Source: a virus
Lineage: Duplodnaviria; Heunggongvirae; Uroviricota; Caudoviricetes
IMG/VR virus record: IMGVR_UViG_2565956624_000001
Coordinates: 1-26,032 of that record
DNA length: 26,032 nucleotides
Reading direction: 5' to 3' (one strand)
Shown here piece by piece: positions 13,975-20,474 of the stretch. A program made the translations under genes and the position numbers. The notes under the pieces were generated by a model. The model had not been told where the DNA came from and searched no databases. It saw only the letters and a program-made list of their open reading frames with translations. Within the stretch, counting starts at the first letter, position 1, and the number at the start of each line of letters is the position of its first letter.

Positions 13975-14673
13975 ATGATCCATGTTCGTACAGGACAATT
14001 TGCTGCCGTGGTGAACGGTAAGCGCTATGAGTTTAATCCTTGCTTTGCTGCGATGGCTAAAATCGGCAACGATAGTGAGCTTGTCGAATATTTCGCACTT
14101 ATCCACGGCGGCAAATATCCATCACGATTGCCAGCAGATCCAGACCTACGCAATCGCATTCTGGCGCGGTGTTATGGTGAAATAGTTCAGACATCAATGC
14201 ACATCCTGAAATGTTGCTCAGACGACGAAATAGGCCCGTTATTGGGCGAATGCTGGTTTACTCCTTCGGGTAAGTTAAAGTTAAAGCCCGGATTAATGCC
14301 GATCGAGGATATCATCACGCTTGCGCAGCACTGCATGTACCACGGTCTTATTGGTGATGGCCCGGAAGAAGAGTCCGGGGAAATCCCGGAAGGGGAATAT
14401 AAGCCGACTTTTAACGTCCTTGAATTCGTCTATTCTGCCGTTGCTCACCTGGGCTTGTCAGAATCGGAAGCATGGAATATGACAATGACCGGATATAGGG
14501 CCGCTGTACGCGCTAAAACGCCGCCAGACGAAAGAAACGAGAAAAGTAAGCCAAACATTCACATAAATAAACGTGCTTATGACGAGCAAATGGAGGCCGC
14601 TAAAAAGGCACTAGAAAGAATGAAAAATCGTGAGCAAGAAAAGCCCGGTAGATCCGGGCGTTTTGCTAATTGA
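13975..14673 (+). CDS. tail assembly chaperone (putative)
   Basis: Track ORF 13966-14673; ATG 13975 with AAGGTGA upstream; position between major tail and tape measure. No frameshift partner ORF is visible. Confidence 0.4.
   Translation: MIHVRTGQFAAVVNGKRYEFNPCFAAMAKIGNDSELVEYFALIHGGKYPSRLPADPDLRNRILARCYGEIVQTSMHILKCCSDDEIGPLLGECWFTPSGKLKLKPGLMPIEDIITLAQHCMYHGLIGDGPEEESGEIPEGEYKPTFNVLEFVYSAVAHLGLSESEAWNMTMTGYRAAVRAKTPPDERNEKSKPNIHINKRAYDEQMEAAKKALERMKNREQEKPGRSGRFAN
14643..14666 (-). terminator. hairpin likely terminating the minus-strand lipoprotein operon, embedded in the 3' end of the chaperone gene
   Basis: GCCCGG-TAGAT-CCGGGC stem; on the minus strand it is followed by TTTTCTT, on the plus strand by GTTTTGC. 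Confidence 0.45.
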
Positions 14674-15040
14674 AATCTTTAATTGCTGTACCTGGTGAAC
14701 TGTGTGTGATTGTATTGTATACAGACTTTGCCTTACTGCGATCTTTCCATTCTTTTAGGATGCAGTTATCAAACTTTGCGATAACCCTTGAAGGGGATAA
14801 TTCTTCAACATCCATGTAAGTAAATCCTATCGTGCTGGTTACTGAATACCATACGTGATAACTATAATTACCGTCATGCTCGATTCTTTGTGGTTCCCCC
14901 ATTATTTTATTCACTTGCTCACAAGTCATTCCAACTTGCAAATTTTTATCAGCTAACTTAACGAAATCAGTTGATCTTGCGCACCCTGTAAGAGCTAAAG
15001 CCATAACACCAATGAGAACCGCTTTGATTATTTTTTTCAT
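14666..15040 (-). CDS. lipoprotein with BamE/SmpA-OmlA-like region (moron)
   Basis: Signal peptide plus lipobox LTGC; segment LQVGMTCEQVNKIMGEP resembles the BamE-type core from memory; AAGGGG upstream of the ATG; antisense to flanking tail genes. Confidence 0.55.
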   Translation of the reverse strand: MKKIIKAVLIGVMALALTGCARSTDFVKLADKNLQVGMTCEQVNKIMGEPQRIEHDGNYSYHVWYSVTSTIGFTYMDVEELSPSRVIAKFDNCILKEWKDRSKAKSVYNTITHSSPGTAIKDFN

Positions 15041-15050
15041 GATTTACCCC

Positions 15051-15710
15051 TTAATTCCAGTTGCAAGCGTTTTTCACTTTGTCGATGTGGTTATAAAGAC
15101 CATCAATGTTAAACACTGCTTTCTCAATGTCGCCAGCTTCCGGCACTACTTCAATGATGAATTGTTTTTCGTTAACCAGTTTTTTAATCATTGGGATGGC
15201 TTTTTTGCCGTCCCATAATCCAAGAGCTTTATAATTAGTTGACCGCCACCACTCAGTAGCTACAGCTTTGTGAACGCCGATCCGGTAGTTAATATAAGTA
15301 GTGTCCCCGGCGTCAGTTACATGGTGTGACCATGCTACGAACATTTTTGTTTTATTACCCTGGCAAGCGATTGTTAATACCGGTTTATTCTTATCCTGTG
15401 CCTTCAGTGTCGGGAAAGCATCAAGACTTCCGCTGAATTGTTCTGCTTTCACAAAAAGGAATACGTTTTTTGCGTCCTGCATATCATCTTTTCTTTCAAC
15501 TACAAGCCACTGTTTACCAGCATTTTCTTTTTCTAACTGTGCATCGTATGCGGCTTGTTTTGCTTGTTGTTCTGCAAGCCATTTAGCATTTTTCTCTGCT
15601 AATGCTTGTTGCTCTTGATTGGTCACTATAGGCGCTTTTTCATTATCCTCATTGCAACCAACCAGACCCAATACCGCCGCAATCATTGCCACTTTTGCTA
15701 ACCGTTTCAT
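15051..15710 (-). CDS. lipoprotein, function unknown (moron)
   Basis: Signal peptide plus lipobox LVGC (MKRLAKVAMIAAVLGLVGCNE); 219 aa; first gene of a two-gene minus-strand operon. Confidence 0.55.
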   Translation of the reverse strand: MKRLAKVAMIAAVLGLVGCNEDNEKAPIVTNQEQQALAEKNAKWLAEQQAKQAAYDAQLEKENAGKQWLVVERKDDMQDAKNVFLFVKAEQFSGSLDAFPTLKAQDKNKPVLTIACQGNKTKMFVAWSHHVTDAGDTTYINYRIGVHKAVATEWWRSTNYKALGLWDGKKAIPMIKKLVNEKQFIIEVVPEAGDIEKAVFNIDGLYNHIDKVKNACNWN

Positions 15711-15837: not shown

Positions 15838-18180
15838 ATGGCTACCAGTGTAGGTACAATTTATTACGAAGTTGATGCGAAAACTGGTCAACTTCTCGTT
15901 GCACAACGACAGGCAGACCAGGCCTTTGATCGTATAGAGCGCGGCGCAAAACAGGCTGACCGCCAGGTAAACACCCTGAAAACATCCATCAAGGCACTGA
16001 CCAGGGTTATCCATCTGCTAATTGCTGCGGAGGCTGTGCGCCAATTTATGGATATGGCGGAGCAAGCAAAAATGCTTCGCGTAAAAATCAAAATGCTTAC
16101 GGGCGATGCGGAGTCCGCCGGACGGGTTTTCGACGGCCTGAAAGCAATATCCAGGGAGACGGGGCAGAGCCTGAAAGATACTGGCGAATTATGGCAAGGC
16201 CTGGCTATCTCACTAAAAAACACCTCCGCTACGGAAGGGCAATTGCTTAACCTGGTTGGCACTATTCAGAAAATGGGTGCATTAGGCGGCGCGTCAGCGG
16301 AACAGATGTCTAACTCAATGCGTCAATTCCGTCAGTCTATCGACGGCGGTGTTCTTCGTGCCGAAGAATTTAACAGCCTGCTTGAAAATACGCCGACCAT
16401 CGTACAAACAATGGCCCGCCATATGGGATTATCAATGGGCCAGTTCCGCGCCGAAATGCTGGACGGCAAGATCACGGCTGAAAGGATGGTTAACGCAATA
16501 CAGGCGGCTACGCAGGAAACAAACGATAAGTTTGCTCAGTTGCCGCGCACATCCGGCATGGCTATCAATGAGCTTAAAGTAGAAATTATGGGCCTTGTTG
16601 AGCAGTTGGATGATCTTTTTGGCGTGTCAGATGGCGTTGTTTCAGCTATCGACTTGATCACGAAAGGCGTTAAAGGGCTTGGCGATGGCGCTAAATTCGC
16701 TAAAACCTGCTTCGACACACTCAAAACGGCTGGTAGCGAATTTATCGACATGTTTGATGATGTGGCTGTTAAGGCTGGAGAGGTGGCAGAGAAGATCATC
16801 GCAATGGTGACGCCAATCAAGGCGCTAATGGATGGCTATAAATGGATGAAGGAGGTAGTAGGAGAGCAAACCGACGAATATAACAGCAACTACGAGAAGA
16901 AATACGGGAAGACCGTTGGCAAGGTCATGCAACTACAGGATGATCTGACCGCAGCAATCCAGGCTACAGAAGAAGCAAGGAAAAATGAACAGAATGCTGC
17001 CAATGACGGAGCGATTACCGGATTCGACAAGCCAGTAGACAAGCCGAAAAAACAGAAAAAAGAGAAGAAATCGGAAGCTGATCGGCTTGGTGACAAAGGT
17101 ATAAGCGTTTCTGATCAGTACAACAAAGACGCCGCCGCCATGCGCAAAGCGTTGGAGAACGGCAAGGCCATTGATGCTGCATTTGCCCAGGGTAAAATCA
17201 CGCTCCTTGAGTACCGCGCCGCGCAAAAAGGGATCGGCAAGGAACTGAAAGAAGAATTAGCACAAATTCCGGTAGATGAATTGCGTGATAAATGGTCACA
17301 AATAGTAAGCCCGATGGATCAGCTAAAAGGCGAAGTTGACCCCATCCAGCAGGCGCAAAATGAATGGGCCATCCGTAAGCAAATGCTTATAGACCTGGGC
17401 GCTACTGAAGCGCAACAGAAACAGGAATTGTTAGCCTATGAGCAACAGATCCGCGATCTGAAATGGGAACAATGGCAGGCGCAAAGCGACACAAACGGCC
17501 TTATCGGTGATTGTGTTAATGGCCTTAAAGGCGGAATGAGTAATGCGCTTGTTGGCCTGTTAAACGGCACTCAATCATTGAGTGATGTTTTTGCTAACTT
17601 AGGAAGCAATATACTCGGCAATATCGGTAACAGACTCTCAGACATAGCTGCAAACTGGATAGCAGATCAGATCATGATGGAGACACAAAGCAAGGCCACG
17701 CAAACAAGTACAACAGCAAGCGCGGTAGCAGCTCAGGGAAGCATTGCTGCGGCGGCGGCCCCAGCAGCGGCGGCAACTGCGGCGTCAACTGGCGGTAGCT
17801 GGGCGGCGGCTGGTTCGGCGGCGCTCACTGCGATCATGTCGCTGGCTACGTCAATTTTCGGCGGCGGTCGCTTTAATGGTGGTAGCGTCATTGGTGGTAA
17901 TATGTACCGCGTAGGGGAACACAACAGGCCGGAGCTATTCCAGACATCTAACGGCAATCAATATATGATCCCTGGCGAGAACGGCAGAGTTATTCCGGGC
18001 CGTGATATTGGCGGCGGTGGCGGTATTAGTATGCCTGTCAGTATCAGCATTCAGACCACGAACGGATTCAGCGACGAAGACAGCCGCAGACTTGAATTAA
18101 CAATGGAACGTGTAGCCATGAAAATGATAACAAGGGAATCTCAAAGACCAGGCGGAATGTTGCAACCTCGCCGCAAATAA
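15838..18180 (+). CDS. tail tape measure protein
   Basis: 780 aa; largely helical/coiled-coil composition with a Gly/Ala-rich hydrophobic segment (AAAAPAAAATAASTGGSWAAAGSAALTAIMSLATSIFGGG); located just upstream of the gpM/L/K/I/J homologues. Confidence 0.85.
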   Translation: MATSVGTIYYEVDAKTGQLLVAQRQADQAFDRIERGAKQADRQVNTLKTSIKALTRVIHLLIAAEAVRQFMDMAEQAKMLRVKIKMLTGDAESAGRVFDGLKAISRETGQSLKDTGELWQGLAISLKNTSATEGQLLNLVGTIQKMGALGGASAEQMSNSMRQFRQSIDGGVLRAEEFNSLLENTPTIVQTMARHMGLSMGQFRAEMLDGKITAERMVNAIQAATQETNDKFAQLPRTSGMAINELKVEIMGLVEQLDDLFGVSDGVVSAIDLITKGVKGLGDGAKFAKTCFDTLKTAGSEFIDMFDDVAVKAGEVAEKIIAMVTPIKALMDGYKWMKEVVGEQTDEYNSNYEKKYGKTVGKVMQLQDDLTAAIQATEEARKNEQNAANDGAITGFDKPVDKPKKQKKEKKSEADRLGDKGISVSDQYNKDAAAMRKALENGKAIDAAFAQGKITLLEYRAAQKGIGKELKEELAQIPVDELRDKWSQIVSPMDQLKGEVDPIQQAQNEWAIRKQMLIDLGATEAQQKQELLAYEQQIRDLKWEQWQAQSDTNGLIGDCVNGLKGGMSNALVGLLNGTQSLSDVFANLGSNILGNIGNRLSDIAANWIADQIMMETQSKATQTSTTASAVAAQGSIAAAAAPAAAATAASTGGSWAAAGSAALTAIMSLATSIFGGGRFNGGSVIGGNMYRVGEHNRPELFQTSNGNQYMIPGENGRVIPGRDIGGGGGISMPVSISIQTTNGFSDEDSRRLELTMERVAMKMITRESQRPGGMLQPRRK

Positions 18181-18184
18181 ACTA

Positions 18185-18214
18185 AACCCCGGTGCAATGC
18201 CGGGGTTATTTTTC
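18185..18214. terminator. intrinsic terminator after the tape measure gene, possibly bidirectional
   Basis: AACCCCGG-TGCAATG-CCGGGGTT hairpin followed by ATTTTTC; the reverse strand is also U-rich after the stem. Confidence 0.6.
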
Positions 18215-18266
18215 GTATTTATAAACGACCATTCCGCGCGATATATCCCCTTTCGAATATCTCGAC

Positions 18267-18521
18267 TCACTTATGAGTGCCTTTCACGCCACATAACTTG
18301 TTATAGGCATGGTGCTCAACAATTAACCAAACCTTCAAATCTTCGCTAAACAGCCTCCAATCAAGATTGATATCCATTTTGTATCCGTAACCGTCGCGTA
18401 ACTTTTTGGGGTAAACTTCTTTTCTCAGAAAGGCTTTAAGTAATTCCTTACCTTTCTTGATGATCCGATCCTGTGCGTTTTTCTGTGCTTTCAGATTTCT
18501 GTCAATCGCTACCAGTTTCAT
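18267..18521 (-). CDS. small basic protein, unknown function (moron)
   Basis: Track ORF, 84 aa, lysine-rich; GGGGTGAG upstream; C-terminus ...WLIVEHHAYNKLCGVKGTHK. A RelE/YafQ-type toxin was considered but is not supported. Confidence 0.45.
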   Translation of the reverse strand: MKLVAIDRNLKAQKNAQDRIIKKGKELLKAFLRKEVYPKKLRDGYGYKMDINLDWRLFSEDLKVWLIVEHHAYNKLCGVKGTHK

Positions 18522-18538
18522 AACTCACCCCATCATCC

Positions 18539-18694
18539 TTAGTTAAGTGCCTTCAGGAAGAAGTCCCGGTATTCATCTTCTTTCGCATTCATCATGAATT
18601 GACCGTATTTGAATGCGTCGTCGAAACCCTTAACGATTGCTATTTCCACTTGTTCGAATGCGTTATTTAGCATTACTACTACATAGCGTTTCAT
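18539..18694 (-). CDS. small protein (51 aa), upstream partner of the 84-aa ORF
   Basis: Hand-translated: MKRYVVVMLNNAFEQVEIAIVKGFDDAFKYGQFMMNAKEDEYRDFFLKALN; GGAGG 8 nt upstream of the ATG; stop lies 17 nt before the next start. Confidence 0.35.
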   Translation of the reverse strand: MKRYVVVMLNNAFEQVEIAIVKGFDDAFKYGQFMMNAKEDEYRDFFLKALN

Positions 18695-18782
18695 TTTGGG
18701 CCTCCTTCGTTGGTACTACTTTCTTCTTGCTTTCTATATACATCTTGTTGCGTGCTATGTGAAGCCATTTTGTAAACTAGCT

Positions 18783-18800
18783 ATAATCATTGTGACAATG
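18783..18800 (+). promoter_or_regulatory. consensus -10 hexamer TATAAT followed by CATTGT-G-ACAATG palindrome
   Basis: TATAAT at 18783-18788 (no good -35 found); 6-bp inverted repeat around a central G at 18788-18800. Confidence 0.3.
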
Positions 18801-18804
18801 ATCT

Positions 18805-18829
18805 TATTTTTCGCGTAGAAGCGCGTAAA
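18805..18829 (+). promoter_or_regulatory. conserved motif copy 2: TATTTTT-CGCGTA-GAAG-CGCGTA-AA, upstream of the gpM-like gene
   Basis: Second copy of the same motif, 35 nt upstream of ATG 18864. Confidence 0.4.
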
Positions 18830-18863
18830 GATATATACAAAATGTAACTTGTGGGGGGGTTTT

Positions 18864-19217
18864 ATGCCGGAAGTGTTCAGATGGACGCCGCAAAGAAGCT
18901 ACAGCGTGACCAGGAAGCCAGACGTATCTGTTGTTAAGCTGGGCGATGGTTATGAGCAAAGACAGGTAAAAGGTATCAATCCATTGCTTGATAGCTACAC
19001 CCTGGTGTTTAAAGGCAGTAGCGCCGGATGTGGTGATGGTGGAAACGTAGCAATCCAGGCGGAAGCATTCTTGAGGGCGCGCGGCGCGGTCGAGGCTTTT
19101 TACTGGTCGCCGTCAATGGATAACGTGCAAAGGCTTTTTGTCTGTCGGCAATGGAGCATGACTAAAGACGGGCCTTTGTACACGCTAAACGCAACGTTTG
19201 AGCAAGTTGTTGGCTAA
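18864..19217 (+). CDS. minor tail protein, lambda gpM-like
   Basis: ATG with GGGGGGGT upstream; 117 aa; ends ...TFEQVVG, matching the lambda gpM C-terminus (EFEQVVN) from memory; synteny with the L, K, I, J homologues. Confidence 0.75.
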   Translation: MPEVFRWTPQRSYSVTRKPDVSVVKLGDGYEQRQVKGINPLLDSYTLVFKGSSAGCGDGGNVAIQAEAFLRARGAVEAFYWSPSMDNVQRLFVCRQWSMTKDGPLYTLNATFEQVVG

Positions 19218-19570: not shown

Positions 19571-19819
19571 CTATAAGTTATCACGCAGATAATTAACGCC
19601 CTTATCAGTGACGAATGAATGGTTAACCTGGTTTTCATCCGTCATGATGATGAATAACTTTTCATGTAGGTATTTCGCTTTCGGGTACAGCGTTAAACAG
19701 ACCTGGTACAGTATCCCGCGCTCAATCAGCAAATCAATAAATTCGTGTTCATGATAACCGATGAGGCGGGCGGCCTGTTTCAACGTGTACACATAATCAC
19801 CGTGATTGCGCCGCCCCAT
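19571..19819 (-). CDS. hypothetical protein, gene C of minus-strand cassette (possible helix-turn-helix)
   Basis: 82 aa; AAGGCGG upstream; segment YTLKQAARLIGYHEHEFIDLLIERGIL looks HTH-like (weak). Confidence 0.45.
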   Translation of the reverse strand: MGRRNHGDYVYTLKQAARLIGYHEHEFIDLLIERGILYQVCLTLYPKAKYLHEKLFIIMTDENQVNHSFVTDKGVNYLRDNL

Positions 19820-19828
19820 GTTGCCGCC

Positions 19829-20176
19829 TTATTTATCGAATGCTGAAAGGTTATCGATACAGAAATCTTTCGCCGCTTTTTCGTATTCGCGTTTTGCTTC
19901 TGGATCGTCAGCCGGGAAACCTTTTGCGTGTATTTCACCAGGGCAAGACTGGTCCATAGAATCTGCATAATAAGCAGTGAAGCTACCATTAATATCTTTC
20001 GGGTTCATATCTTCCACCTCATCAACTATATGTACCGGATTAGCAGCATATTTCACTGGATGGCCTAAACTACATTCAAGAATCCTGCCTTCTTCCAGGG
20101 CTACTTCTTCGCTATCAAATAATCCGAAACACTCCTTGCTACCACTTAACCACACATCAAGACTGTATTTTTTCAT
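19829..20176 (-). CDS. hypothetical protein, gene B of minus-strand cassette
   Basis: Track ORF 19829-20278; internal ATG at 20176 (MKKYSLDVWLSG...) has GAGG upstream, giving 115 aa. Confidence 0.45.
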   Translation of the reverse strand: MKKYSLDVWLSGSKECFGLFDSEEVALEEGRILECSLGHPVKYAANPVHIVDEVEDMNPKDINGSFTAYYADSMDQSCPGEIHAKGFPADDPEAKREYEKAAKDFCIDNLSAFDK

Positions 20177-20345
20177 TTTTGTTAGCCTCATATTTGACAG
20201 GTTCGATCTGGTATCCCAAAAGGCGGTCATCCTCAGCAAGTAAAAGCGCGTCAACCAATGCTTCACCCTCGTCGTCATACAGGGCGATAACCTTTTCCCT
20301 ACCGTCTGTCATGAATACCGTCAACTTCCATAGCTTTTCAGTCAT
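20157..20345 (-). CDS. hypothetical small acidic protein, gene A of minus-strand cassette
   Basis: Track ORF 20157-20465; ATG at 20345 has GGAGG 8 nt upstream (MTEKLWKLTVFMTDGREK..., 62 aa); overlaps the gene B start by 20 nt. Confidence 0.4.
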   Translation of the reverse strand: MTEKLWKLTVFMTDGREKVIALYDDEGEALVDALLLAEDDRLLGYQIEPVKYEANKNEKIQS

Positions 20346-20474
20346 AACGCACCTCCGCGCCATTTTGTTAACTATGCTTCCGTTTGAGTAAAATATACAT
20401 ATTGTAAAAACCGCGATCAATCCATTTTGGTATGATTTAGCGTGACGCAGATCACAGAATGACAAGGTGAGAAA

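Follow-up and report, generated by a model that had tools for sequence, protein, structure and literature searches.

The subject of this analysis is a pair of small genes in a stretch of viral DNA of 26,032 nucleotides (nt), IMG/VR record IMGVR_UViG_2565956624_000001, which as a whole is referred to as the window. The window is part of an Escherichia coli prophage of the mEp021/mEpimmI group; its positions 18150–18900 are 100% identical to E. coli strain LP-26-E1-261 and 82–92% identical to the phages mEp021, mEp554 and MagusPhagus. Between the tape-measure gene and the Phage_min_tail (gpM-like) gene, both on the + strand, an open reading frame (ORF) of 51 amino acids (aa) is followed by one of 84 aa, both antisense to the tail genes (Table 1). 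The counterparts in mEp021 are genes 68 and 67, each annotated as 'hypothetical'. A previous reading of the sequence alone had described a 51-aa ORF with a GGAGG ribosome-binding site, 17 nt ahead of a lysine-rich 84-aa ORF, and had placed the two in antisense orientation between tape-measure and gpM-like genes. The coordinates agree with ours, and the ORFs and the PF05939 match of the right-hand neighbour confirm the placement.

Table 1. Features of the two-gene locus and its surroundings, in positions of the window
Feature	Position	Strand	Remarks
Antisense island upstream of the tape-measure gene	14666–15710	−	
Tape-measure gene	15838–18180	+	Name from relatives
Bidirectional hairpin resembling an intrinsic terminator	18185–18207	both	G+C-rich; stem of 8–10 bp; fold z −2.3; scores on both strands
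Remnant of a Trp-rich ORF	~18222–18260	−	13 codons (...RGYIARNGRL*)
84-aa gene, basic RelE/ParE-superfamily toxin-like protein	18267–18521	−	WP_000779577.1, 'ParE family toxin-like protein'; mEp021_67 homologue
C-terminal GVKGxHK of the 84-aa protein	18270–18290	−	
Spacer between the two ORFs	18522–18538		17 nt
Weaker Shine-Dalgarno-like GGGGTGAG	18524–18531	−	Within the spacer, ahead of the toxin ATG; read from the sequence
51-aa gene, acidic protein	18539–18694	−	WP_001329613.1, 'hypothetical'; mEp021_68 homologue; candidate non-canonical antitoxin or partner
Ribosome-binding site GGAGG of the 51-aa gene	18701–18705	−	6 nt before the ATG; GGAGG or GGGGG kept in relatives
Candidate promoter of the pair	18735–18763	−	TTCACA (18763–18758), 17-nt spacer, TATATA (18740–18735)
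TATAAT hexamer	18782–18787	+	Invariant in all 42 distinct relatives
Perfect 8+8 palindrome ATCATTGT-g-ACAATGAT	18786–18802		Specific to the sub-lineage of the window
Nearly invariant block TTTACGCGnTTCTACGCGAAAAAT (spelled on the − strand)	18806–18829		Divergent intergenic region
Seven-G run	18854–18860	+	Shine-Dalgarno region of the gpM-like gene
Phage_min_tail (gpM-like) gene	18864–19217	+	ATG at 18864; PF05939, E 1e-27
Antisense island between the gpM-like and gpL-like tail genes	19571–20465	−	

Both ORFs are under strong purifying selection. Among the alleles of 47 IMG/VR loci and the phage records, the median pairwise ratio of nonsynonymous to synonymous substitution (dN/dS) was 0.07 for the 84-aa gene (34 distinct nucleotide alleles) and 0.05 for the 51-aa gene (26 distinct alleles). 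Because of these values, and because each protein matches a profile family, the ORFs are more than chance. The supposition that they are accidental antisense frames in tail-gene DNA found no evidence in its favour and is already refuted by the selection, profile and model results: the ORFs occupy an intergenic island with no tail gene opposite them, and both proteins give confident structure models. Its probability is practically nil. The two products differ in charge, the 84-aa protein carrying 15 Lys and 5 Arg (pI 9.9) and the 51-aa protein having a pI of 5.1.

The 84-aa protein matches PF24732 (ParE_like) with 45.3 bits (Pfam gathering cut-off 24.4; E 9e-12), its residues 19–75 covering positions 2–67 of the 67-position profile, and phrog_1525 with E 9e-22; the identical RefSeq protein already bears the toxin-like name given in Table 1. 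It has no NCBIfam match, and neither protein of the pair matched a defence-system model of PADLOC-DB v2 at E up to 10. Searching PDB sequences with HMMER gave nothing for the 84-aa protein, either as a single sequence or as a profile, and when the toxin profile was compared with E. coli YoeB by hhalign the probability was 1.3%, which is not significant. The AF2 model, based on an alignment of 27 sequences (pLDDT 89), shows an N-terminal β-hairpin, one long helix, three strands and a C-terminal helix, and thereby the arrangement of the RelE/ParE fold, a small α/β protein with helices packed on an antiparallel sheet. Its structural matches are YoeB, YafQ, HigB, RelE and ParE toxins, with almost nothing else top-ranked and none of the matches individually strong; ParE2 stands below the RNase-type toxins in the ranking. 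The sequence-only reading had tentatively compared the 84-aa ORF to RelE/YafQ, and this proved to be a good guess, as the protein passes the PF24732 cut-off and its confident model resembles toxins of that fold. That the 84-aa protein is RelE/ParE-type toxin-like is well supported.

Residues K23, L28, K40, L41, G46, R56, W65, H70 and N74 are invariant across the family, down to the 30–39% identical proteins of Sortsnevirus and Kosakonia phages, while Y/F73 and H83 are nearly so. In a hand alignment of secondary-structure elements, as distinct from a superposition, K40, R56, H70 and N74 were placed opposite E46, R65, H83 and Y84 of YoeB; these residues may be equivalent, and the Lys/Arg/His set would fit the RNase-type toxins better than ParE. 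Because of the nearest structural neighbours and the invariant Lys40, Arg56, His70 and Asn74, the 84-aa protein would more likely be a ribosome-associated mRNA endonuclease, as YoeB, YafQ, HigB and RelE are, than a gyrase poison of the ParE type.

Outside the Pfam domain the mEpimmI clade has two extras, the N-terminal β-hairpin (residues 1–17) and a C-terminal GVKGxHK tail. The seven residues of the tail are modelled as disordered (pLDDT ~43). Even so, they hardly vary within the mEpimmI clade or among the homologues from contigs L003, L006, L051 and L053, the last two of 140 kb; the shorter Sortsnevirus-type members lack them. In YoeB and HigB, His residues at the C-terminus are catalytic, and by this analogy the tail may be functional.

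A different view of the same protein is that it represents a domesticated, non-toxic derivative of the RelE/ParE fold, serving for example in RNA or ribosome binding or in regulation, with no poison-antidote role. The absence of a sequence-level match to any solved toxin would agree with such a history, as would the survival of the toxin gene without its partner (see below). Nevertheless, the basic and His residues are invariant even in very distant members, where on the hand alignment they would lie opposite Arg65 and His83/Tyr84 of YoeB, and the Lys-rich basic character is typical of active toxins of the RelE/ParE fold. We consider domestication quite improbable.

The toxin-like family is small and is reached mainly through the Pfam and PHROG profiles. 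A scan of GTDB species representatives gave zero relatives, a metagenome scan with the distant members as queries gave 3 loci only, and a search of 1.8 billion cluster representatives with the single sequence yielded 7 matches only. Distant PF24732 members occur in contigs of small same-strand phage genes (L003–L006), in 140-kb phage contigs (L051, L053), in Sortsnevirus and in Kosakonia phages. Their upstream genes are varied. In three loci (L004, 2710–2982; L005, 2864–2980; L102, 1266–1472) a small CxxC...CxxC protein is encoded, and in the metagenomic contig L103 (1145–1432) the gene of a protein with an XRE-type helix-turn-helix (HTH; HTH_3) lies directly upstream of the PF24732 member. 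The XRE-type HTH is a classical antitoxin type, and MqsA, a zinc-binding antitoxin, offers a possible parallel to the Cys-rich proteins; both kinds of upstream protein may act as alternative partners of one toxin fold. Judged by gene order, PF24732 includes at least one canonical-looking pair, that of L103, while most members are without an obvious partner. In the literature no paper was found on PF24732, on 'ParE family toxin-like' proteins, on the partner or on the pair, and the mEpimmI paper discusses neither gene. The name of PF24732 rests on homology.

The 51-aa protein has a single family match, to phrog_29810 with E 9e-40, a family of no assigned function; Pfam, NCBIfam and PADLOC gave none. 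Its AF2 model (pLDDT 90) is a compact β-β-α-β fold. No recognised antitoxin family or fold and no DNA-binding fold was revealed by profile, PDB-sequence and structure comparisons, the PDB sequence search with the single sequence and with the profile returning nothing. Every homologue found was from an E. coli phage or prophage and shared at least 75% identity, and the 68-aa gene calls made elsewhere are the same gene with non-conserved N-terminal extensions. Kinship of the 51-aa protein to the ~62-aa proteins of a neighbouring island or to a 58-aa gene of the pair's own island was considered and rejected, with hhalign probabilities of ≤1%.

The case for a toxin-antitoxin (TA)-like pair starts from the linkage of the two genes. 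The 51-aa gene stands immediately upstream of the toxin gene in 43 of 45 mEpimmI-type IMG/VR toxin loci, and the reverse search found the toxin gene in all 43 IMG/VR loci that carry the 51-aa gene. The spacer measures 16–21 nt in each of the 45 loci with both genes (the 43 from IMG/VR, MagusPhagus and mEp021) as well as in the window. As expected for a type II module, two adjacent, co-oriented small genes are found, one of them a toxin homologue, with a single terminator downstream. An acidic partner precedes a basic toxin, and the upstream gene has the stronger ribosome-binding site. Further support is provided by the selection on both genes, by the terminator of their own and the promoter-like pattern described below, and by the precedents for TA modules in prophages. 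The family-wide invariance of the basic and His residues K23, K40, R56, H70 and N74 would fit an active toxin, and the distant PF24732 member directly behind an XRE-type HTH gene suggests that the toxin can be found in a classical arrangement.

The regulatory region was compared across the distinct aligned sequences of 42 relatives. A terminator next to the pair had been noticed from the sequence, and a hairpin was indeed found there which scores on both strands; it is terminator-like and would end the tape-measure transcript on the + strand and the transcript of the pair on the − strand. On the other side of the pair, TTCACA and TATATA are conserved in the 42 sequences, and the 17-nt spacer between them is constant in length and variable in sequence. 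Such a pattern is a typical promoter signature and makes this a candidate promoter; a stricter promoter-consensus scan of the window did not call it. The TATAAT to which the sequence-only reading had drawn attention in the divergent region is present, though on the wrong strand for the pair: being on the + strand, it aims at the gpM-like gene and away from the pair, and no good −35 element was found for it. The palindrome of the same reading is likewise present and perfect, but it is confined to the sub-lineage of the window. The relatives keep the right arm alone, and on this ground the palindrome was rejected as a conserved operator.

Three smaller observations concern the same region. A short CGCG...CGCG inverted repeat lies within the nearly invariant block of the divergent intergenic region, and the block is conserved above the flanking coding DNA. 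The length of the G run ahead of the gpM-like gene varies between 5 and 7 nt in relatives that are otherwise nearly identical, which could reflect a slippage-prone tract or a sequencing artefact. The RNA fold around the Shine-Dalgarno-like sequence ahead of the toxin ATG is not unusual (z 0.59), and translational coupling through sequestration of the toxin ribosome-binding site in mRNA structure was rejected on this ground; no Rfam RNA family was found in the whole window.

Several findings weigh against an ordinary TA module. Two features expected of type II modules, an antitoxin of recognised family or fold and a conserved operator, were not found. Of the two proteins, it is the 51-aa one that is better conserved, while in TA pairs this is usually the toxin. 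The genes recombine independently of each other: in contig L043 the 51-aa gene has 100% nucleotide identity to that of the window, and the toxin gene only 69% (67–68% for the protein). A toxin gene of a TA module is expected not to be kept without its antitoxin, and here it is. Contigs L022 and L019 retain an intact 84-aa gene with all invariant residues, placed directly behind the same upstream region as in two-gene loci, from which the 51-aa gene is cleanly absent. L022 is identical to the prophage of E. coli UMNK88, whose genome is complete, and L019 is a second, diverged phage contig of metagenomic origin. With 7 synonymous against 3 non-synonymous differences between the two alleles, the solitary toxin gene is still constrained, and it has thus persisted under constraint in at least two lineages. 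Solitary toxin genes amount to 2 of the 45 IMG/VR loci and, among complete E. coli genomes with the region, to 1 of ~32. The 58-aa gene that lies downstream in the solitary-toxin phages was considered as a relocated antitoxin and rejected, as hhalign gave ≤1% and the gene is also present in many loci that carry the 51-aa gene. Among the distant PF24732 members, the products of the upstream genes are related neither to the 51-aa protein nor to each other, and one partner-less relative lies in a contig with a T7 gp0.4-like gene.

The solitary genes and the partner-less relatives support another explanation, the main rival, according to which the 84-aa protein is a stand-alone phage effector of toxin fold, common to several kinds of phage, and the 51-aa protein is not an essential antidote. 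Possible tasks of the effector are host shut-off, superinfection exclusion and counter-defence; in lysogens it would be tolerated, conditionally active or weakly expressed. The 51-aa protein would then be a dispensable modulator, a 'safety catch' in most temperate carriers, or a mere neighbouring moron gene. The free recombination between the two genes speaks for this explanation, and so does the occurrence of PF24732/phrog_1525 members in Sortsnevirus, in Kosakonia phages and in small-gene contigs with unrelated neighbours. In the unrelated 140-kb phage contigs, moreover, the toxin homologue is accompanied by a 30-aa ORF and the 58-aa gene of the mEpimmI island (d30 and d58) and not by the 51-aa gene. 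Against this explanation stand the tight linkage and fixed position of the 51-aa gene, which was never found without the toxin gene in the IMG/VR loci, and the charge complementarity and an order of ribosome-binding-site strength that are typical of TA operons. We hold the effector explanation to be a real, if tentative, possibility that falls short of an even chance.

Comparison with known systems helps to judge how unusual a TA-like pair of this kind would be. The mRNA endonucleases YoeB, YafQ, HigB and RelE are paired with the antitoxins YefM, DinJ, HigA and RelB; hhalign and HMMER against PDB detected no sequence-level relationship of the 84-aa protein to these toxins, and the 51-aa protein differs from their partners in being neither YefM/Phd nor ribbon-helix-helix nor HTH. 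ParD, the partner of ParE, is a ribbon-helix-helix DNA-binding antitoxin with a disordered tail that wraps the toxin (PMC8251345). Neither a ParD-like fold nor the conserved operator of the classical ParD-ParE modules (RK2; V. cholerae, M. tuberculosis, M. opportunistum) is seen here, and the 51-aa protein is thus not the ribbon-helix-helix partner expected in a ParE-type system. Prophage-borne ParE/RelE modules are known as PaaA2-ParE2 (PMC8630535), ParESO-CopASO (PMC8706911) and PfiAT (PMC13048266). In PaaR2-PaaA2-ParE2 of the cryptic prophage CP-933P of E. coli O157:H7, a toxin of ParE/RelE fold follows a small antitoxin that has no DNA-binding domain, and transcription is controlled by other regulators (PMC8630535).

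PaaA2-ParE2 is the closest known system. The pair of the window shares with it the location in a prophage, the small upstream partner without a DNA-binding domain and the toxin of RelE/ParE fold, and PaaA2-ParE2, though a genuine module, is likewise without a conserved antitoxin operator. The two differ in the small upstream protein, a compact β-β-α-β domain being predicted for the 51-aa protein while PaaA2 is for the most part disordered and helical, and in that the PaaA2 system has a third regulator gene and lies in the immunity region, while the pair has no third gene and lies among tail genes. Morons are known from tail-gene clusters, for instance the tail-assembly blocker Tab (PMC10884400; see also 'The moron comes of age', PMC3594210). 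The pair resembles them as an independent small unit between late genes whose content varies among relatives and whose expression from the prophage would be expected; it differs in the kinds of protein encoded and in matching no PADLOC model.

Taken together, the type II layout proposed from the sequence stands in part. The toxin homologue, the acidic upstream and basic downstream genes, the narrow gap and the terminator were all found, while the antitoxin fold and the conserved operator were not, and toxin genes without a partner exist. The reading that we prefer, to which we would give about an even chance, is that of a prophage moron which is probably a non-canonical TA-like pair and acts like a type II module with an antitoxin that does not bind DNA. 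The two genes would form a bicistronic moron, a self-contained antisense transcription unit in the late tail operon. The 51-aa protein, being small, acidic and fully folded, would bind and neutralise the toxin-like protein without a DNA-binding domain, and the phage or the host, rather than the antitoxin, would set the transcription of the pair. The prophage would probably benefit from the pair through stabilisation, or through exclusion or abortive infection of other phages.

In the manner of a moron, the pair is an antisense unit between conserved phage genes, with its own terminator, a candidate promoter and variable content. In relatives, the number of additional small genes in the island between the tape-measure and gpM-like genes is 0–4. 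Most relatives have a full-length 30-aa Trp-rich ORF right after the toxin gene, of which the window retains the remnant listed in Table 1. This ORF and the 58-aa gene of the island also lie ~2 kb from the ParE_like homologue in L003, L006 and the unrelated 140-kb contigs L051 and L053, and on this account a set of small genes is suggested to move jointly between phage types. In mEp021 (L002, 1084–2418, − strand) two additional genes extend the island on the downstream side of the pair. They carry T5orf172 and DUF4379/CapR treble-clef zinc-finger domains and look like homing-endonuclease genes; the slot therefore accepts mobile insertions.

Further antisense islands flank this one. The island just upstream of the tape-measure gene encodes a 219-aa protein with a VasI domain (type VI secretion; PF11319, E 1e-15) and one of 124 aa that matches BamE and DUF7738 weakly; each of them belongs to a PHROG without known function. 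The island between the gpM-like and gpL-like tail genes encodes proteins of ~62 aa (phrog_29559) and ~115 aa (phrog_38567) and an 82-aa protein with a KilAC/ANT antirepressor domain (PF03374, E 1e-6). With this third island, the late region holds three separate backward-facing moron islands.

The name of the toxin gene (Pfam, PGAP/RefSeq) and prophage RelE/ParE modules as a kind are already known; what is new is the 51-aa partner, together with the doubt over its relationship to the toxin gene. A bolder combination of the two views, which we think rather unlikely, would be that the RelE/ParE-fold protein is an effector across very different phages and that the 51-aa protein is a new kind of inhibitor, compact and fully folded as β-β-α-β with no DNA-binding part and no disordered tail. 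The temperate mEpimmI phages would have added this inhibitor as a 'safety catch' that allows a lysogen to harbour a host-shut-off toxin. If this were true, a new antitoxin fold would have been found and host-takeover toxins would be linked to the origin of TA modules.

The interest of the locus would rise if the 51-aa protein proved to be a new antitoxin fold, or the toxin a widely shared phage effector. Natural partner-less variants such as that of E. coli UMNK88 are a ready-made test of self-poisoning by toxin-like genes. If the 51-aa protein neutralises the toxin, it would represent a new, very small and fully structured type of antitoxin for RelE/ParE systems, and the gap between the tape-measure and gpM-like genes of mEpimmI, a common group of gut coliphages, would be a slot for conflict genes.
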